Positions 3,539 to 28,449 are shown, numbered from the stretch's first letter. The stretch: 28,449 nt of DNA from Xanthobacteraceae bacterium (GCA_028290465.1 JAQGJU010000100.1:1-28449); one strand, 5' to 3'. Made by a program: numbers and translations. Notes: generated by a model from the letters alone, not told the origin.

Positions 3539-4311
3539 TTGGTCCGCGCGAGCAGGCACGGCGGCGCGCCGTGATTCTTTCGCACCATCGCCGAGAACGC
3601 GCTCGGTGAGGCATAGCCGACCGAACGCGCCGACGCCGCGACGCTGGCGCCGGTCGACAGCAAAGCCAGTCCCTCGATGGCCCGCAGATGCGCGCGCCAT
3701 TCGGCGAAACTTAAACCCGTCTCGGCCCGAAATAGCCGCGCCAGCGTACGCCGGCTGGCGCCGGCTTCCGCCGCCCAATGATCGAGATCGTGGTCGATGG
3801 CCGGTGCATCGAGCAGCGCGCGCACCACCCGCAGCACGCGCGTATCGCGCGGCATCGGCACTGACAGCGGCCGCTCGTGCATGTGGCGGAGTTCGGTCAG
3901 GATTAGCCGCGCGATCTGGCCGCCACGGCCGTCCTCGTCGTAGTCCGGCGGTTCTTCCAAGGCCGCGAGAATCAGCTCGCGCAGCAGCCCGCCGACCTCG
4001 ATGAAGGTCGGGCGCGCCGGCAGCCCTTCGCAGGCCGGTTCGTCGATATAGACCGTGCGCATTTCAACCGGGCTGCGCATCGCCACGCCATGCGGAAACC
4101 GCGACGGCAGCCACAGCGCGCGGGCCGGCGGCACGATCCAGGCGGCGTCTTGCGTCTCCACCCGCATGATGCCGGTGGCGGCGTACAGCAGTTGGCCGCG
4201 CCGGTGCATGTGAAACGGGATTTCCGCCCCAGCCACCCAGGATTTGGCCATCGCGGCCACCGGGCGTGGGGCGTCGTCCAGATTGCGGCGGTAGACGGCT
4301 TTTCTAGCCAT
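3535..4311 (-). CDS. AraC-family transcriptional regulator with N-terminal cupin domain
   Basis: The C-terminal AraC HTH reads RRTLARLFRAETGLSFAEWRAHLRAIEGLALL...SVGYASPSAFSAMVRK. The N-terminal cupin reads HMHRRGQLLYAATGIMRVET. The start is uncertain: ATGs at 4392, 4311 and 4251 all lack a clear SD. I chose 4311 because a 4392 start would leave only 12 bp to the divergent MFS gene. The stop overlaps the permease stop (CTAG at 3535-3538). Confidence 0.7.
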   Translation of the reverse strand: MARKAVYRRNLDDAPRPVAAMAKSWVAGAEIPFHMHRRGQLLYAATGIMRVETQDAAWIVPPARALWLPSRFPHGVAMRSPVEMRTVYIDEPACEGLPARPTFIEVGGLLRELILAALEEPPDYDEDGRGGQIARLILTELRHMHERPLSVPMPRDTRVLRVVRALLDAPAIDHDLDHWAAEAGASRRTLARLFRAETGLSFAEWRAHLRAIEGLALLSTGASVAASARSVGYASPSAFSAMVRKNHGAPPCLLARTN

Positions 4312-4404
4312 GTAGACGGTGGCCCGTTTGCGACGAAATTCGACTGAACATCGCAGATCGGCAAAGCTAGACTGCCCGGACGTTACAGACAAGCCGGTGA
4401 TTCA

Positions 4405-5640
4405 ATGACGACCTTGACCGACAGCGCGACCGACGCGGACGAGCAGGCACGGGTGCGTTCAATTGCGTTCCTGAACTGGGCGCATGCCATCGACCACTAT
4501 GTGATCCTGATCTTCCCGACTTTGGTGATCGGACTGCAGGTGATCTATGGCCGCTCCTATGCGGAGATGATCGCGCTCGGCACCGCGTCGTTCGTTGCGT
4601 TCGGCGTGTTCTCGCTGCCGGCCGGCTGGCTGGCCGACCGTTGGAGCCGGCGCAACATGATGGCGCTGTTTTACTTCGGCTGCGGCGGCTCGCTGGCATT
4701 GGCCGCGTTCGCACCCAATCTCATTCTGCTGGCCGCCGCGCTGTTTCTGTTGGGCGTGTTCGCGGCGATCTATCACCCGGTCGGCATGCCGATGCTGATC
4801 GCGGCCGCGACCAGCCGTGGCCGCACGCTGGCGTTCAACGGCGTGTGCGGCAATGTCGGCGCGGCGCTCGCGGCCGGCATCACGGCGGCGCTGGCGACGT
4901 GGTTCGGCTGGCGCGCAGCGTTCCTGGCGCCGGCAACGCTGTGCCTCGTAACCGGCGTATTGTATCTGCGCATGGTGCCGGATGACGGGCACAAGACCGC
5001 AAGCCGCAGCCAGCAGGCCGACGTGCCGCTCAGCATGCACGTGATGGCGACGATGTTCGGCCTGTTCATCGTGATCGCGCTGTCGGCCGGTCTCGTCTTC
5101 AACATCATTTCGGTGGCGCTGCCGAAGATCGTCGACGAACGGATCGGCGAGAACATGCCGCTGCTACTGGTCGGCGGCGTCGCCACCGCGGTGTTCCTGT
5201 GCGGCGCGCTGGCGCAGCTCGCGATGGGCCGGCTGGTCGAAAAATTTCCGCCGCACTGGTTATTCGCCGGCGTGGCGGCGCTGCAGTTCGCCGGCGTGTG
5301 GTGGGCGGCCCATACTGGCGGCCTGACGTTGCTGCTGGCGCTCGCCGTGTCGATGGCCGCGATCTACGGGCAGGTGACGGTGAACGACGTGGTGATCGCG
5401 CGCTACACCGCGGACGCCTGGCGCGGGCGCGTTTATGCCGTGCGCTATTTCCTCACCTTCGTGTCATCCGGCGCCGCCGTGTCGGCGATCGCGTTCCTGT
5501 ACAGCCGCGGCGGCTTCGATCTGGTGCTCGGAACCACGGCGTTCCTGGCGCTCGGCTTCGTGGTGGCGACCGCCGCCGTCGCGGTGCTGGTGACCGGCGT
5601 TGAAAAGCGCCGGGCGCGGAACTTGCAGGCGGTGGAGTAA
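4405..5640 (+). CDS. MFS transporter
   Basis: The 411-aa product has about 12 predicted TM helices. MFS-like motifs include GWLADRWSRR between TM2 and TM3. It is divergent from the AraC gene. Confidence 0.8.
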   Translation: MTTLTDSATDADEQARVRSIAFLNWAHAIDHYVILIFPTLVIGLQVIYGRSYAEMIALGTASFVAFGVFSLPAGWLADRWSRRNMMALFYFGCGGSLALAAFAPNLILLAAALFLLGVFAAIYHPVGMPMLIAAATSRGRTLAFNGVCGNVGAALAAGITAALATWFGWRAAFLAPATLCLVTGVLYLRMVPDDGHKTASRSQQADVPLSMHVMATMFGLFIVIALSAGLVFNIISVALPKIVDERIGENMPLLLVGGVATAVFLCGALAQLAMGRLVEKFPPHWLFAGVAALQFAGVWWAAHTGGLTLLLALAVSMAAIYGQVTVNDVVIARYTADAWRGRVYAVRYFLTFVSSGAAVSAIAFLYSRGGFDLVLGTTAFLALGFVVATAAVAVLVTGVEKRRARNLQAVE

Positions 5641-7087: not shown

Positions 7088-7903
7088 TTAGTTCCCAACC
7101 CGCTCAATCATCGCCATCGCGGCGGCCGGCGCGCGTACTTTCCCTTCATGGATGAAGTAGGCGAACACGTCGCGCGGCGCGGCCTTCGGCTTGTTTTTCT
7201 CGTCGACCAGCGGCAGGTCGGCGGGCGCGCCGCCCTTCGCCCAGGCCTGTAGACGCTCCGCCCATTGGTCGAGCGCTTTCGGCTTGTAGCCGGTCTCGAC
7301 CGTGTCTTCGCCCTTTTGCAAGCGCGCATAGATGAAGTCGCCGGTGATATCCGGGATCGCCGGATAGGTCGCGTGCTCGGAGAACACCACCGGCACCTTG
7401 AACTCGCGGAGCAGCGCGATGAATTCCGGCGTACAGAAACTGTCGTGCCGCACTTCGACGACATGGCGCAGCGCGCGGCCATCCAGCTTTTGCGGCAGCA
7501 GTTCGAGGAATGCGCCGAAGTCGGCGGCGTCGAATTTCTTGGTCGGCATGAACTGCCACAGCACCGGGCCGAGCCGGTCCCCCAGCTCCAGCACGCCGGA
7601 ATCGTAGAAGCGCTTCACCGAGTCGCCGGCCTCGGCCAGCACTTTGCGGTTGGTGGCGAAGCGCGGACCCTTGAGCGAGAACACGAAGCCGTCCGGCACT
7701 TCGCTGGCCCATTTGCGGAAGCTCTCGGGCTTCTGCGAGCCGTAATACGTGCCGTTGACCTCGATCGAGGTCAGCTTGCTGGCCGCGTAGGTCAGCTCTT
7801 TCTTCTGCGCCAGGCCCTCGGGATAGAACACCCCGCGCCACGGCTCGAAGGTCCAGCCGCCGATGCCGACGCGGATATGCGCCGCAGCCTTTTTCGTGGT
7901 CAT
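7088..7903 (-). CDS. DUF72-family protein (YecE-like)
   Basis: MTTKKAAAHIRVGIGGWTFEPWRGVFYP matches the characteristic DUF72 N-terminus (G.SGW.Y..W...FYP). The 271-aa product is co-directional with the adjacent DUF488 gene. Confidence 0.8.
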   Translation of the reverse strand: MTTKKAAAHIRVGIGGWTFEPWRGVFYPEGLAQKKELTYAASKLTSIEVNGTYYGSQKPESFRKWASEVPDGFVFSLKGPRFATNRKVLAEAGDSVKRFYDSGVLELGDRLGPVLWQFMPTKKFDAADFGAFLELLPQKLDGRALRHVVEVRHDSFCTPEFIALLREFKVPVVFSEHATYPAIPDITGDFIYARLQKGEDTVETGYKPKALDQWAERLQAWAKGGAPADLPLVDEKNKPKAAPRDVFAYFIHEGKVRAPAAAMAMIERVGN

Positions 7904-8712: not shown

Positions 8713-9005
8713 TCGGGGTCGCGTTGCCGTCTTGGTTGGCGATTCATCGCGAAATAAAACGCGGTGCATCATCATCACGACGGATATTTTCGTGCGCGGT
8801 TGGTGCGCGGCACTCATATTTAATTGCTTTTTCGCACACGGGCCGTTTGGCCTCTTGCGCTCAAGTTCCGTTTGCATCATAAGCCGCGTCCTTCGCGAGG
8901 CCATGTGTCCGGGCTCGATGAGACCCGGCTGGCGCGGGCCGCTCTGCGGCTTCGTGTTCCGCCAAACGGAGACGATCATGCTTATGCCAAGCATACGATC
9001 ACACT

Positions 9006-9081
9006 GCGAGGATAGCTCAGTGGTAGAGCAGATGACTTGTAATCATCGTGACGCGGGTTCGAATCCCGTTCCAACGCTCCG
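9006..9081 (+). tRNA. tRNA-Thr(UGU)-like gene with aberrant acceptor stem (possible pseudogene)
   Basis: The hand fold gives D-arm GCTC-AGTGGTA-GAGC, anticodon arm GATGA-CTTGTAA-TCATC (anticodon TGT) and T-arm GCGGG-TTCGAAT-CCCGT. However, the 5' acceptor GCGAGGA faces a 3' strand TCCAACGC. That gives six Watson-Crick pairs plus an A-A mismatch and a one-nucleotide bulge. I confirmed the bases through the overlapping track ORF translation (..NPVPTLRF..). Confidence 0.6.
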
Positions 9082-9401: not shown

Positions 9402-10553
9402 ATGACCCGGCACCTGTTGATGCTGCGCGTGACGGTGAAGGACGGCCAGCGCGCCCTCCTGACGCGCAACGGACAGTTCGAGCGTGTGCTCGAGCCGGGC
9501 CGGCACCGTCTGTTCGACCCGGCGCATGCGCGTGCGGTCGAGGTGTACGACGTCGTCCGTGCCGAATTCCCGGCCGAGCGTCACGCCGTGCTGATGACGG
9601 CGAAGCCGCAGCTCGCGGCCGAGCTGTTCGAGGTGGTCGAGACGAAGGCGGATGAACTCGCCATCGTCAGCCTCGACGGCCGTCCGACGCATCTGATGGC
9701 GCCGTGGCAGAAGCGCGTGTTCTGGAAGGTCGCGACCCGTGTCGATGTCGAGCGCATCGATGTGGCGGTCGACCCGAAGGTGTCCGCGCGCCATCTGACG
9801 ATGATCGTGCGCGAGCGCAACACGCTCGCGGCCGAGCATGTTGTTGAGAACCACGAGGCCGGTCTGCTCTTCGTCGAGGGCCGTCTGGTCGAGCGGTTGG
9901 CGCCGGGCCGGCATGCGTTCTGGACGGTCGGCCGCAAGATCGAGGTCAAGCGCCTCGACCTGCGTCCTCAGGCGCTCGAGATCACGGCGCAGGAGATGCT
10001 GACCAAGGACCGCATCGCGCTGCGGGTGACGCTCACCGCGTTTCGCCGGATCGTCGATCCGGAGCGGGTGGTGAGCACGGTGCCGGACGTGGATGCTTGG
10101 CTGTACCGGTTGGTGCAGTTCGCGATCCGCGAGGCGGTCGCCGGCCGTACGCTCGACGAGGTGCTGGCGGCCCGCAACGTGCTCGACGCGGAGCTTCGCG
10201 CCTATGTGCGCGAGCGCATCGCGGAGACCGGCCTCGAGGTGACGGAGCTCGGCGTAAAGGATGTGATCCTGCCCGGCGAAATCCGCGAGCTCGTGAACAA
10301 GGTGGTGGAGGCGGAGCGGACGGCGAAGGCCAACCTGATCCGCCGCCAGGAAGAGACCGCGGCGACGCGTTCGCTTCTGAACACCGCCAAGCTGATGGAG
10401 GACAACCCGCTTCTCCTGCGGCTGAAGGAGCTCGAGTCGATCGAGCGGATGGTCGAGAAGGTCGGCCGCATCGATCTCCACGCCGGGGACGGCGCGGGCC
10501 TCGATGCGCTACTGACCGGCCTGGTGCGCGTCAAGGCGCCCCAGGCGGGCTGA
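9402..10553 (+). CDS. SPFH/band-7 (slipin-like) domain protein lacking an N-terminal TM helix
   Basis: An SPFH core (EITAQEMLTKDRIALRVTLTAFRRIVDPERVV...) is followed by a coiled-coil C-terminus (AERTAKANLIRRQEETAATRSLLNTAKLMEDNP). The motif G-x-F-E-R-V/L-L-E/A-P-G-R-H occurs at aa ~24-36 and again at ~160-172. A GGAG RBS is present. The 381-aa minus-strand ORF here is a shadow. Confidence 0.8.
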   Translation: MTRHLLMLRVTVKDGQRALLTRNGQFERVLEPGRHRLFDPAHARAVEVYDVVRAEFPAERHAVLMTAKPQLAAELFEVVETKADELAIVSLDGRPTHLMAPWQKRVFWKVATRVDVERIDVAVDPKVSARHLTMIVRERNTLAAEHVVENHEAGLLFVEGRLVERLAPGRHAFWTVGRKIEVKRLDLRPQALEITAQEMLTKDRIALRVTLTAFRRIVDPERVVSTVPDVDAWLYRLVQFAIREAVAGRTLDEVLAARNVLDAELRAYVRERIAETGLEVTELGVKDVILPGEIRELVNKVVEAERTAKANLIRRQEETAATRSLLNTAKLMEDNPLLLRLKELESIERMVEKVGRIDLHAGDGAGLDALLTGLVRVKAPQAG

Positions 10554-10790: not shown

Positions 10791-10829
10791 TGACGTCGCG
10801 GTCATCAGGCCACTTGCAGCATTTGTTCC

Positions 10830-10941
10830 GTCATCCTGAGGCGCCCGGCGTAGCCGGGCCTCGAAGGATAGACGGCCCCGATTTGCAACGCCTCGGCTGT
10901 CATCCTTCGAGGCTCGCTTCGCTCGCACCTCTGGATGACGG
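10830..10941. repeat. REP/BIME-like nested-palindrome repeat, family A (GTCATCCTGAGG...CCTCGAAGGAT...GGATGAC)
   Basis: The terminal inverted repeats are GTCATCC and GGATGAC, and the internal inverted pair is CCTCGAAGGAT and ATCCTTCGAGG. Its 'ORF' (RHPEVRAKRASKDD...SFEARLRR) is the typical spurious translation of this Bradyrhizobiaceae repeat family. Confidence 0.6.
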
Positions 10942-10984
10942 ATTAATGCTTCGGCTCGACTTATATTTGCATCACCCAATAGCA

Positions 10985-13946: not shown

Positions 13947-13999
13947 GCGATGCCAGTCGTCGGAGAGTGCGCCGCCGCTCTGACCCGCTTTGTTCTCAG

Positions 14000-14086
14000 T
14001 CATGGCCGGGCTCGTCCCGGCCATCCACGTCTTGCTTATGGTCAGATCATGAAGACGTGGATGCCCGGCACAAGGCCGGGCATGAC
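14000..14086. repeat. REP/MITE-like palindromic repeat, family B (two inverted ~35-nt units GTCATGSCCGG...CATCCACGTCTT)
   Basis: GTCATGGCCGGGCTCGTCCCGGCCATCCACGTCTTG and, after a 17-nt spacer, AAGACGTGGATGCCCGGCACAAGGCCGGGCATGAC. Its translation (KTWMPGTRPGMT) is the typical spurious ORF of this repeat family. It sits between usg and the Bug/TctC gene. Confidence 0.6.
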
Positions 14087-19657: not shown

Positions 19658-21919
19658 CTACCCGGCCAGCGACATCGGATCGCTGAGCACCGGCTGCGCC
19701 GACGCGACGCCGGATATGCGCAGGGTGATCTGCTCGGGCGCCACCGGGCGGCCGAAGCGATAGCCTTGCAGCGAATGCACGCCGGCGGCGCGCAGGAACA
19801 AATGCTGCTCGGCGGTCTCGACGCCTTCGGCCGTGACCTTCATGCGCAGGCCGCGGCCGAGGCTGACCACCGCATGGATGATGGCGGCCGCATCGGCGCC
19901 GCCTTCGATGCTGCGCACGAAGCTGCCGTCGATCTTCAGCTTGTCGAACGGGAAACGCCGCAGATACTGCAAGCTCGAATAGCCGGTGCCGAAATCGTCC
20001 AGCGCCAGCCGCACGCCGAGCGCCTTCAGGCGCAGCATCGCGGCCTCGGCGCTGTCGACATTGCCAAGCAGCGTGCTCTCGGTGACTTCAAGCTCCAGCA
20101 GGGTCGGATCGAAGCCGGTGTCGGCCAACGCCCGCTCCACCATCTCGACGAATTGCGGCCGGCGGAATTGCATCGGCGACACATTGACCGCCATGGTGAT
20201 GCCGGGCCACTGCCTGCCTTCGTGGCAGGCGCGGCGCAACACCCATTCGCCGAGATCGAAGATCAGCCCGCTATGTTCGGCGACCGGAATGAACTCGGCC
20301 GGCGACACTTCGCCGCGCAGCGGGTGGGTCCAGCGCGCCAGCGCCTCCAGGCCGATCACCCGCTCGCCGCTGGCATTGACCAGCGGCTGGTAGACGACAT
20401 GCAGCGCGTCGTTCTCCAGCGCCTCACGCAGGTCGTTTTCCAGGTGCTTGCGATGCGACAGGTCGGCGTCCATCGCGGCGTCGTAGATGCAGGCGCGGTT
20501 GCGGCCTTCGTTCTTCGCCCGGTACAGCGCCATGTCGGCATAGCGCATGATGTCGGCGGCGCTCTGCACGCGCTGATCGACGATGGCGATGCCGATGCTG
20601 GCACCGATCACGATGGTCTGGTCGTTGATCGCGTAGGGCGCACACAGCGCCGTGCGCATCCGGGTCGCGACGGTCTGCAATTCATTCGCGTCGAGATCGC
20701 CGGCCAGCAGCACCGCGAATTCGTCGCCGCCGAGCCGCGCCACCAGATCCTGGTCGGTGACCGTGCGGGCGAGGCGGAGCGTGACGTTGCGAATCAACTC
20801 GTCGCCGACCGGGTGGCCGAGCGTATCGTTGACGTCCTTGAAGTGATCGAGATCGATGTAGAACACCGAGGCGCCGGCTTCGCCGCGCCGTACTTCGTTG
20901 ATCACGCTTTCCAGCCGCTCGCCGAAATAGATGCGGTTGGGCAGGCCGCACAGCGGGTCGTGCAGCGCAAGGTGCCGCATGCGGTTTTCGCCGGCCGCGA
21001 TGGTGGCGGCGGTGCGCCGCATATAGCGCAGCACCAGGCCGACCAGCAGCATGAAGCCGCCGATCGCCACGGTGATGAACGGCACGATGCTGGCGACGAT
21101 TTCGCTGCCGGTGCGGGTCGGCGTCCAGGCGAACCGGCTGATCGGCAGGCCATGGCCGTCGACGACTTCATAGGCGAAGTCGCCGGACGGCAGATCGCCA
21201 TCCGCGACCTGCCGGAGGTTATGCAGTTGCAGACGGGTCGCGATGCCGGTCAGCACGTCTTCATCGATGAAGCGTACCACCAGCACGGCCGGTGCTGTTT
21301 TGTCGGTGCCGTCCGACGGCGCGGTGACGGCGACCGCGGCGACGATCGCCGGGCGGCCGACGAAGTTCTGCACCAGTGCGACGTGGGCGCGCGGCTTGCC
21401 GAGGCCGCCGGGCGCGGCCGCGATGCGGATGGTGCCGGTCGGCGCGGTTGCGGTGCGGCCGCGCAGATAGTCGAGCATGGGATCGAGGCTGGGGCGCACC
21501 GAGGCAAACAGGTCCGGCTCGATATTGCTGCGGCCGAGCCGCGCGTAGATCAGATGGTCCTGCGGATCGGCCACGAACACGTAGTCGTGGTCGAAATAGT
21601 TCTGCAGCCAGCGCCCGACGTTTTGTTGGACATAATCGCGATTGAAGCTGGTGCGGATATTGTCAACCGAAGCCGCCGTGGTGGCGACGCTTTCGACCTG
21701 CCGCAGCACGCCGGCGGCCTGCTCGGCGATCGCCTTGGTGAACAGTTGCTCCTCATGGGCCAGCGCGACCTGATCGGCGCGTTGCGCCGAGGTCAGCACG
21801 GCCACCACGATGCACGTAATCGCAAGCGCCACGATCACGCAGACCGGCGCTACGACGCTCAGGCGGGTCCGGTCCCACTCGAAGGGCCGACGCTTATCGC
21901 CGAGGGGCGAACTTGCCAC
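19658..21919 (-). CDS. Membrane-anchored sensor diguanylate cyclase/phosphodiesterase (periplasmic domain-GGDEF-EAL)
   Basis: TM1 (aa ~20-45), a ~220-aa periplasmic domain, TM2 (IVASIVPFITVAIGGFMLLVGLVL), then a GGDEF domain (RLGGDEFAV) and an EAL domain (EALARW, DDFGTGYSS, KIDGSFV). It has a GTG start. The 734-aa plus ORF is an antisense shadow. Confidence 0.9.
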   Translation of the reverse strand: MASSPLGDKRRPFEWDRTRLSVVAPVCVIVALAITCIVVAVLTSAQRADQVALAHEEQLFTKAIAEQAAGVLRQVESVATTAASVDNIRTSFNRDYVQQNVGRWLQNYFDHDYVFVADPQDHLIYARLGRSNIEPDLFASVRPSLDPMLDYLRGRTATAPTGTIRIAAAPGGLGKPRAHVALVQNFVGRPAIVAAVAVTAPSDGTDKTAPAVLVVRFIDEDVLTGIATRLQLHNLRQVADGDLPSGDFAYEVVDGHGLPISRFAWTPTRTGSEIVASIVPFITVAIGGFMLLVGLVLRYMRRTAATIAAGENRMRHLALHDPLCGLPNRIYFGERLESVINEVRRGEAGASVFYIDLDHFKDVNDTLGHPVGDELIRNVTLRLARTVTDQDLVARLGGDEFAVLLAGDLDANELQTVATRMRTALCAPYAINDQTIVIGASIGIAIVDQRVQSAADIMRYADMALYRAKNEGRNRACIYDAAMDADLSHRKHLENDLREALENDALHVVYQPLVNASGERVIGLEALARWTHPLRGEVSPAEFIPVAEHSGLIFDLGEWVLRRACHEGRQWPGITMAVNVSPMQFRRPQFVEMVERALADTGFDPTLLELEVTESTLLGNVDSAEAAMLRLKALGVRLALDDFGTGYSSLQYLRRFPFDKLKIDGSFVRSIEGGADAAAIIHAVVSLGRGLRMKVTAEGVETAEQHLFLRAAGVHSLQGYRFGRPVAPEQITLRISGVASAQPVLSDPMSLAG

Positions 21920-22144
21920 GGCCCGTACCTCCCCCTTTTGGATTGCGTTCGCGTGGAGGTGGCAAGGTAGTTCACAAAAATTGCAAATAACTTGCCGGAA
22001 TCGAAGACTGCCCCCATTTGCGCCAACATGTACGCGTTTTACCGCGTGGGGTTAATCAGGAGTTAAGAAGCCGGGCCGGCGCTGTGCGCGCTTTCCCGCT
22101 AAGCGTGGCGAGGGGAAGAAGCGACGCTTCGATCCATACCGCTC

Positions 22145-22897
22145 TCAGCCGCCCGTCGCGGTGCCATAGGGCGGGCGCGGAATAGCAATGTGGGCGGCGC
22201 GCAGCGCGGCCGACCAGCGCTCGCGCAGATCGCGGAAATACGGCTCGTCCGGCTCGATGCGATAGGCCAATTCGGCGTCGCAGGCGTCGCGCCGCACCAC
22301 CAGCACGTCGAGCGGCATGCCGACGCTCAGGTTCGACCGCATGGTAGAGTCCACCGAGATCAACCCGATCTTGAGCGCGTCATACAGATCGATGCCATAA
22401 TGGATGGCGCGATCCAGCACCGGCTTGCCGTATTTGTGCTCGCCGATCTGCAGATAGGGCGTGTCGGTGGTGCATTCGATGAAGTTGCCGGCCGCATAGA
22501 CCATGAACAGCCGCAGCTTGCCGCCTTTGACCTGACCGCCGAACAGGAACGCGACATCGAACTTCACGTCGGACGCGGCGAACGCCTTGCCCTCGCTGTC
22601 ATAGATGCTGCGGATCGCGCTGCCGAGCCGCTGCGCCGCCTGGAACATGGTCGGCGCATTCATCAGGGTTTCGAGTTCGCCGGTTTCCGGATTCGGCACG
22701 CCCTCGGTCAGCATGCTGACCACGGTCTGGCTGATCGATAGGTTGCCCGAGGAGGCGATCGCCATGATGCGTTCGCCCGGATTGTTGAACACATGCAGCT
22801 TGCGGAACGTAGCGATGTTGTCGACGCCCGCATTGGTGCGGGTGTCGGCGATCATCACCAGCCCGTCGCGGACCAGAATTCCGCAGCAATAGGTCAT
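22145..22897 (-). CDS. Anbu (ancestral beta-subunit) proteasome-type peptidase
   Basis: The N-terminus MTYCCGILVRDGLVMIADTRTNAGVDNIATF has the Anbu/HslV-like Ntn-hydrolase start, with Thr2 as nucleophile after Met removal. The 250-aa product has an AAGGAG RBS. Confidence 0.85.
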   Translation of the reverse strand: MTYCCGILVRDGLVMIADTRTNAGVDNIATFRKLHVFNNPGERIMAIASSGNLSISQTVVSMLTEGVPNPETGELETLMNAPTMFQAAQRLGSAIRSIYDSEGKAFAASDVKFDVAFLFGGQVKGGKLRLFMVYAAGNFIECTTDTPYLQIGEHKYGKPVLDRAIHYGIDLYDALKIGLISVDSTMRSNLSVGMPLDVLVVRRDACDAELAYRIEPDEPYFRDLRERWSAALRAAHIAIPRPPYGTATGG

Positions 22898-22954
22898 CGG
22901 TCCGCTCCTTGGGATCCCGGCCGACCCGCAGCGGATCGGGGCGGTCCATCCCTG

Positions 22955-23030
22955 TAACTAGCGGGGCAGTTATAGCGAGGCCCGGAAGGGGGCGGCAATG
23001 GCAGGGCATGGCCCCGGGGCAGTTATCCGG
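22955..23030. promoter_or_regulatory. Candidate operator: two direct GGGGCAGTTAT 11-mers, 53 bp apart, in the Anbu/secreted-protein divergent promoter
   Basis: GGGGCAGTTAT occurs at 22963..22973 and 23016..23026, both anchored by overlapping ORF-track codons. The first copy is embedded in the inverted repeat TAACT-N8-AGTTA. Confidence 0.35.
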
Positions 23031-23180
23031 CCCTTTGCGCGCCGGGGGCAATGCCGACACCCGATACCGACGCGGCAAAGGCGGCTGAAGGTACCACCCG
23101 GCCGGCCATCAGCGGCGATACGACGCTCTCTTAACCGGCACGGCTTACGGTAAATAAAGGCTGATTCGGCACGCTTCACC

Positions 23181-24380
23181 ATGGACTTAACAATGCAAAG
23201 AGCGCTCGCATCGGTTCCCGGCCGTACGCTGTTACTGGCGCTGTTGTTGGGCGCGCCCGGCCTCGCACTCGCGGCCCCCGGTCCGCGGTTGGCGCAGACG
23301 GCACCGGTCGATATGGACGCCGCGCTGGCACAGTATCAGCAGCAGATGGCGGCCTATACGGCGGCCCGCGAAGCCTATGAAGAGGTCGCGGGGCCGTATT
23401 GGGCGGCGATTACCGAAAAGCGCCGGCTGCGCGTCGCCAAGCGCCGCGACCGCCAGCCGGTCGACTTCGACGATTATGTGCTGACGCAGCCGCCGACCTA
23501 CACGGGCCCGAAGCGGCCGGTCGATCCGCTGGCGCGGCCCGAAGAGGCGCCGCAGCGGGCTTATGTGCCGGTGGTGGCCGATTTCCTGGAAGCCGCCGCG
23601 ACCCATTACAAATTCGTGCCGCAGCGCCCGCGCGACGAGTTGGAATACAAACGCGCCTATGCGCAGGCCGCCGCGGCGGCCGGCCTGACCCGCGATCAGA
23701 TCGTGCGCGTCTATGTGTTCGAATGCGGCGGCAACGGCAAATACGATTTGCAGGCCGGGCTGGAATACCGGGCCGACGCGCGGGCAATCAGCTCCGCGCT
23801 CGGCTATAATCAGTTGCTGCACATCAACAGCGTGTCGCTGCTCGCCGAGCGCGGCGACGGTATCCTCAAATCGCTGCACGCCAAGGCGGCACGGCTGACG
23901 GGTGCCGACAAGACCAAGCTCGAGCACAAGATCGCCATCGTGAAGCGAATGATTACGGCGAGTCGCACCGTGCCGCGGCAATGGAGCCAGCACGAAAAGC
24001 TCGCCAAGACGCCGCAAGGCTATGGCATGCATGCGCTGGTGCTGGACGTCGATGTCGGGCCGCTGCTGCAGACGCAGAAGCTGCTCGACTCGGTGGTGTT
24101 CGCGCAGCGCCATGGGATGGAACGTCCGCTGACGGCCGCCGAACTGGAAATGATGAATCTCACCGGCGACGGCAACGGCATCGACATGGTGATGATGCCG
24201 GCCGAGATGCGAACTCAGGTGCCGACGTCGAATTTCTTCCAGCGCAACGGCTATGAGCGCAATCCGGTGGCGATCCGCAACAATACGGTGGCCAAGCTGC
24301 TGGCCGCCACGGATGCCAAGATGGATCGTGAGACCAATGCGCCGGGCGCCAAGGATCTGGCGGCGGCCTATCCGCGATAA
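23181..24380 (+). CDS. Hypothetical secreted protein (signal peptide; no confident family assignment)
   Basis: The 399-aa product has an N-terminal Sec signal (LLLALLLGAPGLALAAP). An internal segment VYVFECGGNGKYDLQAGL...SALGYNQLLHINSVSLL is faintly reminiscent of lysozyme-like folds but is not assignable. The 425-aa antisense ORF is a shadow. Confidence 0.55.
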   Translation: MDLTMQRALASVPGRTLLLALLLGAPGLALAAPGPRLAQTAPVDMDAALAQYQQQMAAYTAAREAYEEVAGPYWAAITEKRRLRVAKRRDRQPVDFDDYVLTQPPTYTGPKRPVDPLARPEEAPQRAYVPVVADFLEAAATHYKFVPQRPRDELEYKRAYAQAAAAAGLTRDQIVRVYVFECGGNGKYDLQAGLEYRADARAISSALGYNQLLHINSVSLLAERGDGILKSLHAKAARLTGADKTKLEHKIAIVKRMITASRTVPRQWSQHEKLAKTPQGYGMHALVLDVDVGPLLQTQKLLDSVVFAQRHGMERPLTAAELEMMNLTGDGNGIDMVMMPAEMRTQVPTSNFFQRNGYERNPVAIRNNTVAKLLAATDAKMDRETNAPGAKDLAAAYPR

Positions 24381-24507
24381 CCTGTCCTCCTTGAAGACGG
24401 TGTGAAGGGCCTCCCGAAACGCTTTGCCTTGGCGTAGCGTTCGTGCAACGTCGCGCCGCAGCTGCGTGACAGCCATTCGCATAAGCGAAGGCGCTGGGGA
24501 GGGTCGC

Positions 24508-25563
24508 ATGAGGTTTCTGAAGGCCGTTGCTTTTTTATGTGCGCTGACCGGTTCAGCCGGCGCGGCCGACTATCCGGCGCCGAAGCAGGGTGACTGGATC
24601 GCCCGCGATTTCAAATTCCAGACCGGCGAGGTGATGCCGGAGCTTCGCCTGCACTACACGACCATTGGCGAGCCGACCGGACAGCCGGTGCTGATCCTGC
24701 ACGGCACCGCCGGCTCCGGCGCCAGCATGCTGACAACGGCCTTCGCGGGCGAACTGTTCGGCCCCGGCCAGCCGCTCGACGCGGCCAAACATTACATCAT
24801 CCTTCCGGACGCGATCGGCGCCGGCAAATCGTCGAAACCGTCCGACGGCATGCGGGCGAAGTTTCCGAAATATAATTATGACGACATGGTCGCGGCGCAG
24901 TACCGGCTGGTCAAGGAAGGCCTGGGCGTGCGGCACTTACGTCTGGTGCTCGGCAATTCGATGGGCGGCATGCATACGTGGGCCTGGGGCGCGAAATATC
25001 CGGAGTTCATGGATGCGCTGGCCCCGATGGCGTCGCAGCCGACCGCGATGGCCAGCCGCAACTGGATGATGCGGCGAATGATGATCGACGCGGTGCGCAA
25101 CGATCCGGCCTGGAACAATGGCGACTACACCGCGCAGCCGACCGCGTTTCGCGTCGCCAATACATTCTACGGCATCGCCGCCAATGGCGGCACGCTGGCC
25201 TATCAGAAACTGGCGCCGACGCGCGCAGCCGCCGACAAGCTGCTCAACGACCGTCTGTCAGCGCCCTTTAACGCCGACGCCAACGACTTTCTCTATCAGT
25301 GGGAATCGTCCAGCGACTACGACGCGTCGCCCGGATTGGAGCGCATTCAGGCCGCGCTGCTGGCCATCAATGCGGCCGACGACGAGCGCAATCCGCCGGA
25401 AACCGGCATCATGGAGCGCGGATTGAAACGCGTGAAGAATGGCAGACTGCTGCTGATCCCGGCCAGCGAAGATACGCGCGGCCACGGCACCACCGGCAAC
25501 GCGAAGTTTTATGCGAAGCCGTTGGGCGAGTGGCTGGCGGGCGTGCCGGCGAAGGGGATGTGA
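24508..25563 (+). CDS. Secreted alpha/beta-hydrolase (MetX/homoserine-acetyltransferase-like fold)
   Basis: ATG 24508 follows a GGGGAGGG RBS. The signal peptide is MRFLKAVAFLCALTGSAGA. The nucleophile elbow GNSMGGMHTW and the HGTAGSGASM oxyanion region are present. Confidence 0.8.
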   Translation: MRFLKAVAFLCALTGSAGAADYPAPKQGDWIARDFKFQTGEVMPELRLHYTTIGEPTGQPVLILHGTAGSGASMLTTAFAGELFGPGQPLDAAKHYIILPDAIGAGKSSKPSDGMRAKFPKYNYDDMVAAQYRLVKEGLGVRHLRLVLGNSMGGMHTWAWGAKYPEFMDALAPMASQPTAMASRNWMMRRMMIDAVRNDPAWNNGDYTAQPTAFRVANTFYGIAANGGTLAYQKLAPTRAAADKLLNDRLSAPFNADANDFLYQWESSSDYDASPGLERIQAALLAINAADDERNPPETGIMERGLKRVKNGRLLLIPASEDTRGHGTTGNAKFYAKPLGEWLAGVPAKGM

Positions 25564-25575
25564 GGCGAAGAAGCC

Positions 25576-26406
25576 TCAACTCTGCGTCTGTCGCCCGGCC
25601 TGATCGACCTGCACGGCGATCGACATGGTCTCGGCGCCGCCGCCATAGCGGGTGCCGCGCACCGGCGCCGCGCCGAGATAATCCAGCCCGATCGCGACAC
25701 GCACGTGGGCATCGGTGGCGCACATGCCGTTGGTCGGATCGAACGCGATCCAGCCGTAATCCGTCACAAAGGCTTCGGCCCAGGCGTGGCCGGCTTCCTG
25801 CGCGGTGACGCCATCGGCGCGGTGGAAATACCCGCCGACGTATCTGGCCGGCACCCCCAGGGTGCGGGCGACGGCGAGGAAAATATGCGTCGCATCCTGG
25901 CAGACGCCGCGCTTGAGCGTGAAGGCTTCGGCCGCCGTGGTGCCGGAATTGGTCGGATCGGTATCGTAGGTGATGTCGTCGTGCAGGCGGTCCATCAGCG
26001 TATGCATCAGGCCGAGCGTCTCGGCGCTGTCGGGCAACGCGCGCAGTTCCTCGGCGAACGCGGTAATGCCCGGGTCGGGCATCGTCAGCGGCGTCTCGCG
26101 CAGGAACAGGCTCGGCGGAAAGCGTTCGACCGCGCCCTTGACGAACCCGTTGGTGTCCTGGGTTTCGACCTCGCCATCGACCCGCACGCTCAGCGTGGAG
26201 AACGGCCCGTCGGCCGTGAAGGCATGCGAGATATTGCCGAAGGCGTCTTCATGCTCGTCGAGCCGGCAATCCTGCGACACGTCCACGCGCCAGTCGATCA
26301 CGAACTGACCGTCATGGTTGCGCGGCGTCAGCCGTAGATTCTGGATCACGCCGTTCGGCGGCTGGTCATAGTTATAGACCGTCTCGTGCGAGATGCGGAT
26401 ACGCAT
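25576..26406 (-). CDS. Transglutaminase-like cysteine protease-fold protein (Bact_transglu_N + TGase core)
   Basis: It begins MRIRISHETVYNYDQPP, the Bact_transglu_N start. The core carries a candidate Cys/His/Asp triad in RGVCQDATH, GHAWAEAF and FDPTNG. An AGGAG RBS is present. Confidence 0.85.
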   Translation of the reverse strand: MRIRISHETVYNYDQPPNGVIQNLRLTPRNHDGQFVIDWRVDVSQDCRLDEHEDAFGNISHAFTADGPFSTLSVRVDGEVETQDTNGFVKGAVERFPPSLFLRETPLTMPDPGITAFAEELRALPDSAETLGLMHTLMDRLHDDITYDTDPTNSGTTAAEAFTLKRGVCQDATHIFLAVARTLGVPARYVGGYFHRADGVTAQEAGHAWAEAFVTDYGWIAFDPTNGMCATDAHVRVAIGLDYLGAAPVRGTRYGGGAETMSIAVQVDQAGRQTQS

Positions 26407-26511
26407 CGGCTCCTCGTCATCCTGTCGGACCGGATGCGACGGCGCCGCGCGATCCCGTCAGCCATTGATCCCGAACGCGTCCGCCTTGTCCATGGGGGGG
26501 CCAGGGCAGGA

Positions 26512-27453
26512 TTAAAGCAGATATTGCTGGGTGATGGCAGCACCGAGGCGGTTGTTGTCGGCGACGAATTCGCTGATGAATTCGTGCAACCCGTGCTGGA
26601 AAATCTCGTCCATGCGGCTGTTTTGCAGCCTTGTGCGGATCGCCCGGGCTTGGCGCTGGGCCGGGCCCTGGCGGCCATAGGCTCTGGCGATTTCGTCCAG
26701 GAACCGGACCTGGTTCTCGAAACAGGATGCCAGCGAGCGCGGCATCTGCTCGTTGAGCATCAACAGATCGGCAATCAGCCACGGCTTCAGGCTGTCGCGA
26801 TAGACCCAGTGATAGGCGGTGAGCGCCGACACCGAGCGCAGGATCGCGGCCCATTGGAAATAGTCGAGCGGTCCGCCGACCTGTTCGTCGGCCGGCAGCA
26901 GCATGTGGTATTTCACGTCGAGGATGCGGGCGGTGTTGTCGGCCCGCTCCATGTAGACGCCGAGCCGGGAGAACCAGTAGGCGTCGTTGCGCAGCATGGT
27001 CCGGTAAGCCGAGCCGTCGAAGCGCAGCGAGATTTCCTGCACCCAGCGCAAAAAATTGGCGAACTCCTCGCGCGAGGTCGGACCGTTGCCGAAGCGTTTG
27101 AGTTCGATCCAGGCGCCGTTGATGGCGTCCCACATCTCGGAGGTGAGCGCGGTGCGGACCGCGCGCGCATTGGTGCGCGCCGCCTCGATGCAGGAGCGGA
27201 TCGAGGACGGGTTCTCGCTCGAGAAGGCGAGAAAATCGGTGACGGTTTCCTCAGTGGCTTCGTCGTGCACCGCCGCGAACGCGGCCGCGCAGCCGGCGGT
27301 CGCGACCGCGGATTCCCATTCATTCGACGAGCCCACATAGGCCAGCGGCAGCGCGGTGAGGCGTTGCGTCGCTTCCAGGATGCGCGCGAGATATTCGGCG
27401 CGCTCCACGTAGCGCGCGAGCCAGTACAGATTATCGGCGGTGCGCGAAAGCAT
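26512..27453 (-). CDS. Alpha-E domain protein (DUF403)
   Basis: MLSRTADNLYWLARYVERAEYLARILEATQRL is the canonical Alpha-E N-terminus. The 313-aa all-helical protein is invariably partnered with circularly permuted ATP-grasp proteins. Confidence 0.85.
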   Translation of the reverse strand: MLSRTADNLYWLARYVERAEYLARILEATQRLTALPLAYVGSSNEWESAVATAGCAAAFAAVHDEATEETVTDFLAFSSENPSSIRSCIEAARTNARAVRTALTSEMWDAINGAWIELKRFGNGPTSREEFANFLRWVQEISLRFDGSAYRTMLRNDAYWFSRLGVYMERADNTARILDVKYHMLLPADEQVGGPLDYFQWAAILRSVSALTAYHWVYRDSLKPWLIADLLMLNEQMPRSLASCFENQVRFLDEIARAYGRQGPAQRQARAIRTRLQNSRMDEIFQHGLHEFISEFVADNNRLGAAITQQYLL

Positions 27454-27499
27454 GCGGGTTACGCTATCAAATACGGGTTGCGGTGGAAGTTAAGCACGG

Positions 27500-28449
27500 T
27501 CATGTGTCCAACACCCACGTGTCCTTGGTGCCGCCGCCCTGGCTGGAATTGACCACCAGCGAGCCTTTCTTCAGCGCCACGCGGGTGAGGCCGCCGGGCA
27601 CGATCCTGACTTTGTCGCGGCCGGTGAGCACGAACGGCCGCAGATCGACATGGCGCGGCGCGACGCCTTCGTCGACACAGGTCGGACAGGTCGACAGCGC
27701 CAGCGTCGGCTGGGCGATGAAGTTCTTCGGATCGGATTTCAGCTTGGCCCGGAACGCGGCGATGGTGGCCTTGTCGGCCTTCGGGCCGATCAGCATGCCG
27801 TAGCCGCCGGAGCCGTGCACTTCCTTGACGACCAGTTCTTCGAGATGATCGAGCACGTACGAAAGATGCTCGGGCTCGCGGCAGCGCCAGGTCGGCACGT
27901 TCTTCAGAATCGGCTCCTCGCCGAGATAGAATTTCACGATCTGCGGCATGTAGCTGTAGACGGCCTTGTCGTCCGCGATGCCGGTGCCGACCGCGTTGGC
28001 GAGCGTCACGTTGCCGGCCTGATAGGCCGACATGATGCCGGGCACGCCCAGAATAGAATCCGGCCGGAACGCCAGCGGATCGAGGAAGTCGTCATCGACG
28101 CGGCGATAGATCACGTCGACGCGCGACGGCCCCTGCGTGGTCCGCATGTAGACCACGTCGTCCTTGACGAACAGGTCGCGGCCCTCGACCAGTTCGATGC
28201 CGAGCTTGTCGGCCAGGAACGAGTGCTCGTAATAGGCCGAGTTGTGAACTCCCGGGGTCAGCAGCACGACGATCGGCTCGGCGCTGGCGGTCGTCGGCGC
28301 CACCGATTTCAACGTCGCCAGCAGGTCGTCGGTATAATTCTCCACCGGCGCGACCCGGTGGCGGGCAAACAGTTCCGGAAACAGCCGCAGCATGATCTCC
28401 CGGTTCTCCAGCATGTAGGAGACGCCGGAGGGCGTGCGGGCATTGTCCT
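27500..28449 (-). CDS. Circularly permuted ATP-grasp type 2 (DUF404/DUF407) protein, C-terminal ~315 aa (N-terminus beyond window)
   Basis: The minus-strand frame reads open to the window edge. The C-terminal region (...[42 protein letters not shown]...[11 protein letters not shown]) matches CP_ATPgrasp_2. It sits 46 bp upstream of Alpha-E on the same strand. Confidence 0.8.

Follow-up and report, generated by a model that had tools for sequence, protein, structure and literature searches.

An Anbu operon divided by a stepwise two-gene insertion in a small lineage of Xanthobacteraceae

This study analyzed a window of 28,449 nt, the whole stretch of DNA under examination, from contig JAQGJU010000100.1 of a Xanthobacteraceae bacterium metagenome-assembled genome (MAG); all coordinates refer to this window unless another locus is named. 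The genes of interest are four minus-strand genes of the Anbu (ancestral beta-subunit) operon. The first (27500..>28449) encodes a circularly permuted (CP) ATP-grasp protein, a COG2308-type amidoligase, and is truncated by the contig end; the 950 bp in the window cover only the C-terminal 316 or so codons. The translated part matched the Pfam family CP_ATPgrasp_2 with an E value of 2.1e-131 (438.8 bits against a cutoff of 32; profile positions 87-374 of 374), and a full-length orthologue of 472 aa, with 92% nucleotide identity, is present in a related locus designated L081 (L081 coordinates 3729-5147). After a 46-bp spacer follows the Alpha-E gene (COG2307; 26512..27453, minus strand, 313 aa), whose product matched PF04168 over its full length (E = 4.9e-95, 319 bits, profile positions 1-294 of 294) and carries ER motifs at residues 17-18 and 169-170. 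A 105-bp spacer then leads to a gene for a transglutaminase-like protein (TGase; COG1305, papain-fold Cys-His-Asp; 25576..26406, minus strand, 276 aa). The TGase exceeded the Pfam cutoffs for both Bact_transglu_N (E = 9.6e-22) and Transglut_core (E = 8e-23) and matched the Protein Data Bank (PDB) entry 3isr (E = 1.2e-12), with which the triad Cys169 (GVCQD), His207 (GHAWAE), and Asp223 (AFDPT) was aligned in register.

The Anbu gene itself (22145..22897, minus strand, 250 aa) encodes a proteasome-like N-terminal nucleophile (Ntn) hydrolase; 2,678 bp separate it from the stop codon of the TGase gene upstream. Five Anbu chains (5loy, 5nyj, 5nyf, 5nyw, and 5lox) were matched over the full length with E values of 4.5e-79 to 1.2e-63, and these were the sole PDB matches at E<=0.01. 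The match to the Pfam Proteasome family had an E value of 2.3e-05, and the archaeal beta-subunit model scored merely 26 bits against its cutoff of 224. The N-terminus MTYC together with Asp18 and Lys33 in precursor numbering corresponds to the Thr1/Asp17/Lys32 set once the initiator Met is removed, and there is no propeptide; MTYC, D18, and K33 were kept in 82 of 82 Anbu orthologues. These results bear out the initial annotation in its gene coordinates and spacers, the families of all four proteins, the TGase triad, and the nucleophilic Thr of Anbu. Downstream of Anbu lies a CHASE4-GGDEF-EAL gene (19658..21919, minus strand; Pfam CHASE4, GGDEF, and EAL), which adjoins Anbu in 72 of 82 loci, some of them without the ligase trio of ATP-grasp, Alpha-E, and TGase genes, and which probably represents inherited synteny. 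The immediate neighbors of Anbu are this gene and a gene for a secreted protein described below; no AAA+ ATPase partner lies beside Anbu. The order ATP-grasp, Alpha-E, TGase, and Anbu on one strand is thus that of the canonical Anbu operon, whereas the canonical contiguity is broken between TGase and Anbu.

The content of this gap, which had been passed over in the initial annotation, consists of two genes on the plus strand, which run antisense to the operon. The product of inserted gene 1 (23181..24380, 399 aa) has a signal-peptide-like N-terminus and is predicted to be a secreted protein with a lysozyme or lytic-transglycosylase fold. Its family comprises more than 7,900 homologues; no match was found in Pfam, the SLT family included, or in NCBIfam. 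The predicted structure, computed from a 32-sequence alignment, was confident, with a predicted local distance difference test (pLDDT) score of 82; a Foldseek search with this model was not significant by itself. The protein contains an invariant Glu181 within an FE.GG motif. Compared with Family 1 lytic transglycosylases and gp144 of phage phiKZ, it shows approximately 15% sequence identity and has a long N-terminal helix and extra helices. Inserted gene 2 (24508..25563, 351 aa) encodes a secreted alpha/beta hydrolase of the PRK06489 family with a MetX-like fold (NCBIfam NF005071, E = 2.3e-169; Pfam Abhydrolase_1, E = 9.3e-17), and its product bears a signal peptide. Export is predicted for both proteins, which makes neither of them an evident partner for the Anbu system in the cytoplasm.

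To place this arrangement among relatives, we scanned for the Anbu protein with one genome per species and obtained 80 loci in which Anbu is 77-84% identical to that of the window. All are from Xanthobacteraceae (Pseudorhodoplanes, Pseudolabrys, Rhodoplanes, and unnamed MAGs), and their neighborhoods were determined by tblastn with all window proteins. L072 comes from a cultured species, Rhodoplanes azumiensis. Among the matches listed by a separate search for Anbu homologues, relatives of 78-96% identity filled every place, and no Bradyrhizobium or more distant contexts appeared. In most of the 80 relatives, the ATP-grasp, Alpha-E, TGase, and Anbu genes followed by CHASE4-GGDEF-EAL are contiguous, with a median TGase-Anbu spacer of 90 bp, and homologues of either inserted gene were absent within 10 kb on each side of Anbu. 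The DNA homology between the window and its relatives ends at the TGase stop (25572-25648) and restarts at 22897-22915, immediately upstream of the Anbu ribosome-binding site (RBS). The left breakpoint is therefore the convergent junction at which the TGase and hydrolase stop codons lie 12 bp apart (25561..25578), and the right breakpoint falls at approximately 22911-22916, within the intergenic region 22898..23180. Contiguity in relatives, the absence of the inserted genes, and the homology breakpoints together identify the split as a derived, lineage-specific insertion of approximately 2.66 kb that, by sequence comparison, replaced a short ancestral spacer.

Further contigs trace how this arrangement arose. 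Three further contigs, which come from different JGI samples, encode an identical Anbu protein: L081 is 92-97% identical to the window in DNA and contains both inserted genes, and L082 and L083 are 99.5-99.7% identical with the same arrangement. In a fourth locus, L084 (Anbu 96% identical in amino acids), the lysozyme-like gene alone lies between TGase and Anbu and the hydrolase gene is absent, which indicates that the arrangement was built in steps. The insertion flanks contained no direct or inverted repeats and no insertion sequence remnants, an ARAGORN search found no tRNA, and the GC content was uniform over the insert and across its junctions. Homologues of the product of inserted gene 1 with 61-68% identity occupy unrelated neighborhoods. 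The split is thus no artefact; it is derived and has become fixed in a small lineage.

Sequence divergence shows that purifying selection has continued to act on all four genes since the split and that they stay functional. Anbu showed 0 nonsynonymous and 16 synonymous differences from L081 and a ratio of nonsynonymous to synonymous substitution rates (dN/dS) of 0.086 against L084; dN/dS for ATP-grasp, Alpha-E, and TGase was 0.01-0.14. The TGase diverges much faster than its partners, with 51-71% identity to relatives by tblastn, compared with 83-92% for ATP-grasp, 72-85% for Alpha-E, and 77-84% for Anbu.

Since the operon start lies outside the window, its promoter was read in relatives (L081, L084, and others) by using the sigma-54 pattern TGGCNC-N5-TTGCW with no more than 2 mismatches and with GG and GC required. 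L081 has a -24/-12 element, TGGCGCGGGGCTTGCT, 76 bp ahead of the ATP-grasp start codon; in each of the 64 loci whose upstream DNA sufficed, and in L084, such an element was found 39-127 bp upstream of ATP-grasp. As a control, the pattern occurred in 3 of 82 regions upstream of Anbu and 8 of 72 upstream of the GGDEF-EAL gene; no site was found upstream of Anbu in the split lineage (window, L081, and L084). One sigma-54-like site in the window, CGGCAAGTTATTTGCA (21997-21982, minus strand, 2 mismatches), lies upstream of the GGDEF-EAL start, with similar sites in 8 of 72 relatives. In 52 of 63 loci, a 16-nt dyad, GCCYAAAANNTRRGCA, precedes the -24 element by 49-97 bp, compared with 1.9 in shuffles, a contrast inflated by the post hoc definition of the motif from the same sequences. 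In L081, the dyad is at about 3583-3598 and the sigma-54 element at about 3653-3668. The dyad may be bound by an NtrC-like enhancer-binding protein, for which it is a candidate site; canonical NtrC-type palindromes (GCAC-N9-GTGC and TGCA-N9-TGCA) were not found upstream of the sigma-54 sites. A sigma-54 element upstream of ATP-grasp fits published findings: the Anbu operon of Pseudomonas putida is among the genes most strongly induced under nitrogen limitation (PMC3235984, note added in proof; PMC8050072, Table 2). In Bradyrhizobium DOA9, an RpoN site has been predicted upstream of a CP_ATPgrasp_1 gene (PMC13207237).

The region upstream of the separated Anbu gene is a divergent intergenic region of 283 bp (22898..23180; Anbu on the minus strand) that contains an RBS and a sigma-70-like block and lacks a sigma-54 site. 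The initial annotation had credited Anbu with its own RBS and promoter region. The RBS, AAGGAG (22910-22905), stands 7 nt ahead of the ATG. The promoter region fared less clearly: it gave no strict sigma-70 match, yet it holds a conserved block, TTGCCG (22998-22993)-N18-TATAAC (22974-22969), that shows no change among the window, L081, L082, and the more distantly related L084, with substitutions and indels in its flanks. The restriction of the sigma-54 element to the region upstream of ATP-grasp, the two antisense genes in between, and the sigma-70-like block make independent Anbu expression plausible, and independent transcription appears to be the most likely consequence of the split. Separate expression of Anbu has precedent even within a contiguous operon, because in P. 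putida the PP_2688 (ATP-grasp) promoter is nitrogen-responsive and the PP_2685 (Anbu) promoter is constitutive (PMC8050072).

Taken jointly, these findings favor, with a probability of roughly 0.85, a normal Anbu operon that was split stepwise by two genes and in which Anbu is now likely expressed from its own promoter. In this account, the relatives show the ancestral state, four contiguous genes with a sigma-54 promoter upstream of ATP-grasp and the dyad upstream of that promoter. The TGase-Anbu spacer was then replaced in steps, by the lytic-transglycosylase-fold gene first and the alpha/beta hydrolase gene second, which separated Anbu physically from the sigma-54 promoter and left it most likely to be transcribed from a sigma-70-type promoter in the new 283-bp region. 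As for function, the protein families and published work suggest that ATP-grasp and Alpha-E may act together when nitrogen is limiting and make ATP-dependent amide bonds, peptide or isopeptide, on a peptide or protein; the product may then be processed, removed, or degraded by the TGase-like enzyme, with its Cys-His-Asp triad, and by Anbu as a Thr1 hydrolase. Under this scheme, the split lineage would combine constitutive expression of Anbu with nitrogen control of the ligase module.

Several observations weigh against parts of this account. A strict sigma-70 consensus scan of 21800..28449 found no operon-strand promoter upstream of Anbu, and the TTGCCG-N18-TATAAC block is a pattern match that stands as a candidate promoter; other blocks in the 283-bp spacer are equally conserved, and the conservation could serve the divergent gene. 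The sigma-54 promoter of the window itself would lie beyond the contig, the element being known from relatives alone, and the dyad carries the post hoc definition noted above. On the biochemical side, assays of published Anbu proteins found no peptidase activity, and no stable complexes were found among Anbu-operon proteins (PMC6376114). Moreover, a terminator scan found no convincing terminator after the TGase gene, which leaves room for read-through.

Such read-through is the core of one rival explanation, in which the sigma-54 transcript would pass the TGase stop, run antisense over the inserted genes, and keep Anbu co-transcribed with its regulation unchanged. The TGase/hydrolase junction offers only a hairpin with a 6-bp stem (TGAGGC-ttcttc-GCCTCA) and no T-run in place of a canonical intrinsic terminator, and such terminators are rare anyway in this GC-rich window, where terminator-like sites occur at the chance level (6 found compared with 4.8 expected). 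Co-transcription would, however, require 2.7 kb of antisense transcription against two convergently transcribed genes, the sister genome L081 has an added 117-bp palindromic repeat at the same junction, and Anbu is preceded by a conserved promoter-like block; we consider this explanation rather improbable. Two other rivals concern the split itself and are far less credible still. That the separated arrangement is ancestral and contiguity derived has no finding in its favor and is contradicted by contiguity in most of the 80 species-level relatives and in distant phyla, by the homology breakpoints, by the absence of the inserted genes from all relatives' loci, and by L084 as a one-gene intermediate; it was rejected. 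The initial annotation had itself named constant separation by unrelated genes in close relatives as the observation that would make the split ancestral, and those relatives proved overwhelmingly contiguous. That the split is an assembly artefact was a reasonable concern for a MAG contig, which might be chimeric, but the junctions recur in L081, L082, L083, and L084, assembled independently from different samples, and the GC content is uniform over them; misassembly was likewise rejected as extremely improbable.

A further rival holds that Anbu works independently of the ligase/TGase trio in this family, for example as a stand-alone peptidase, and that the split is a symptom of weak or absent linkage. 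The operon has indeed been broken elsewhere among the relatives. Insertions between TGase and Anbu occur in L022 (a 402-aa open reading frame [ORF]), L031 (a CxxC protein), and L077 and L080 (an ABC substrate-binding protein), and insertions between Alpha-E and TGase occur in L027 and L055 (prfC), L056, and L084 (Uma2). The prfC gene, which encodes release factor 3, is antisense in L027 and L055, and the L055 copy appears to be split into two ORFs; the Uma2-family gene lies at 10158-10706 of L084. The ATP-grasp/Alpha-E spacer in relatives has a median of 13.5 bp and holds no gene in any of them. In L013, L053, L054, and L074, which come from the assemblies JBFLYS01, CAMDDZ01, CAWHLG01, and VGEP01, respectively, the MoCF/CinA-like ancestral left neighbor stands directly upstream of an intact Anbu gene (at 10001 or 5000 in the coordinates of the locus) and the trio is cleanly missing at the locus; in L051 and L057, other genes take its place. 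L013 retains a sigma-54-like site, AGGCACGCGGGTTGCT, 101 bp upstream of Anbu, the expected remnant of a precise trio deletion that kept the operon promoter. The separate TGase-Anbu insertions and the trio-less loci, in which Anbu keeps MTYC/D18/K33 and a normal identity, speak for independence, as do published pull-downs in which Anbu formed no complex with other operon proteins (PMC6376114). Against it, the four genes stay together in most relatives and their association is preserved in other phyla, the absence of the trio covers the locus only, with the trio possibly elsewhere in those genomes, and all four genes are retained and constrained in the split lineage. We therefore regard independence as a possible but unlikely alternative, although a less remote one than co-transcription, and retain the stepwise split of a normal Anbu operon as the preferred explanation.

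The locus differs little from known systems. The canonical four-gene Anbu operon, its conserved order, and ATP hydrolysis by its ATP-grasp protein have been published (PMC6376114), and the operons of P. putida (PP_2688-PP_2685) and Yersinia bercovieri share the four families, their order, and their strand with the window. The ATP-grasp homologue of Y. bercovieri releases inorganic phosphate from ATP (PMC6376114). In relatives, the ATP-grasp promoter is of the sigma-54 type, which matches the nitrogen-limitation induction of the P. putida operon. In the window, in contrast, 2.66 kb and two antisense genes separate TGase from Anbu, which excludes a simple operon, and the first gene is truncated. 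Thr1, Asp17, Lys32/33, and the lack of a propeptide have been described for Anbu (PMC6376114), and its open-ring or helical dodecameric assembly was characterized by small-angle X-ray scattering, electron microscopy, or crystallography (PMC5666114). The window protein aligned over its full length with the solved particles (5nyf, 5nyj, and 5nyw of the Hyphomicrobium/Pseudomonas type, 5lox, and the designed consensus 5loy) and shares Thr1/Asp17/Lys32 with them. Proposed roles comprise peptide ligation or tagging plus processing, or proteolysis in nitrogen starvation (PMC3235984, PMC5666114, PMC6376114). Valas and Bourne (2008) reported that Anbu sometimes lies outside the operon (PMC3235984); their separated Anbu genes are likewise encoded apart from the other three, whereas the split described here is dated to a specific lineage and traced to stepwise insertion. 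They predicted the same regulon for separated Anbu, and here no sigma-54 site lies upstream of Anbu. We found no newer publications that resolve the function of the operon. The statement in the initial annotation that the system is defined only by comparative genomics does not hold, because structures, negative assays, ATPase activity, and nitrogen induction have been published (PMC5666114, PMC6376114, PMC8050072). Its suggestion that the split is useful for dissecting the system also fails, as the host is an uncultured MAG and offers no practical advantage.

An analogy exists with the actinobacterial Pup-proteasome, which comprises the PafA ligase, Dop, and the 20S proteasome and is the model for tagging followed by processing. 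In both systems, the gene of an ATP-dependent carboxylate-amine ligase stands beside that of a proteasome-family Thr1 hydrolase. PafA has a glutamine synthetase-like fold, whereas the ligase here is a CP-ATP-grasp protein, and neither a Pup-like tag gene nor an AAA+ ATPase is present. To our knowledge, tagging has been shown for no Anbu operon.

Other features were noted in the window and in L081. A small palindromic intergenic element of approximately 117 bp (GTCATCCTGAGG...CCTCGAAGGAT) occurs once in the window (10828-10944) and at 7193-7309 and 2665-2775 of L081, where it has landed in the TGase/hydrolase junction. A second GC-rich element (L081, 5148-5296) fills the ATP-grasp/Alpha-E spacer of that locus, which measures 155 bp compared with 46 bp in the window. 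A tRNA-like sequence lies at 9003-9079 (plus strand) and scored 54.8 bits against the Rfam tRNA model (9010-9072; model positions 5-66 of 71). Its anticodon loop, CTTGTAA, would correspond to Thr-TGT, no 3' arm complements its 5' acceptor arm GCGAGGA, and ARAGORN made no call for it; it may be a tRNA-Thr pseudogene or an integration-site remnant. A 35-nt inverted repeat was located at 13999-14086.

The locus represents no new system; it is an ordinary example of the known Anbu operon in which the gene arrangement has changed in a minor, local way. Because the system, its gene order, the nitrogen/sigma-54 link, and separated Anbu genes have all been published and the host is uncultured, it adds little by itself, and the question of Anbu function is no more tractable here than in existing model organisms. 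The 80 relatives nevertheless set modest constraints that can be tested: ATP-grasp and Alpha-E are separated in none of them, insertions are tolerated at the TGase-Anbu and Alpha-E-TGase positions, several species retain Anbu at a locus that lacks the trio, and the sigma-54 promoter with its dyad is universal in the clade. At least four independent TGase-Anbu insertions and at least four clean trio losses raise the further idea, speculative and in our judgment improbable, that Anbu has been repeatedly uncoupled in the Pseudolabrys/Pseudorhodoplanes/Rhodoplanes clade and is perhaps ligase-independent there, with ATP-grasp and Alpha-E, which are never parted, perhaps forming the obligate core. 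If this were true, Anbu may have a ligase-independent role in these bacteria, possibly one tied to cyclic di-GMP signaling, as the intact Anbu gene always stays beside the CHASE4-GGDEF-EAL gene.

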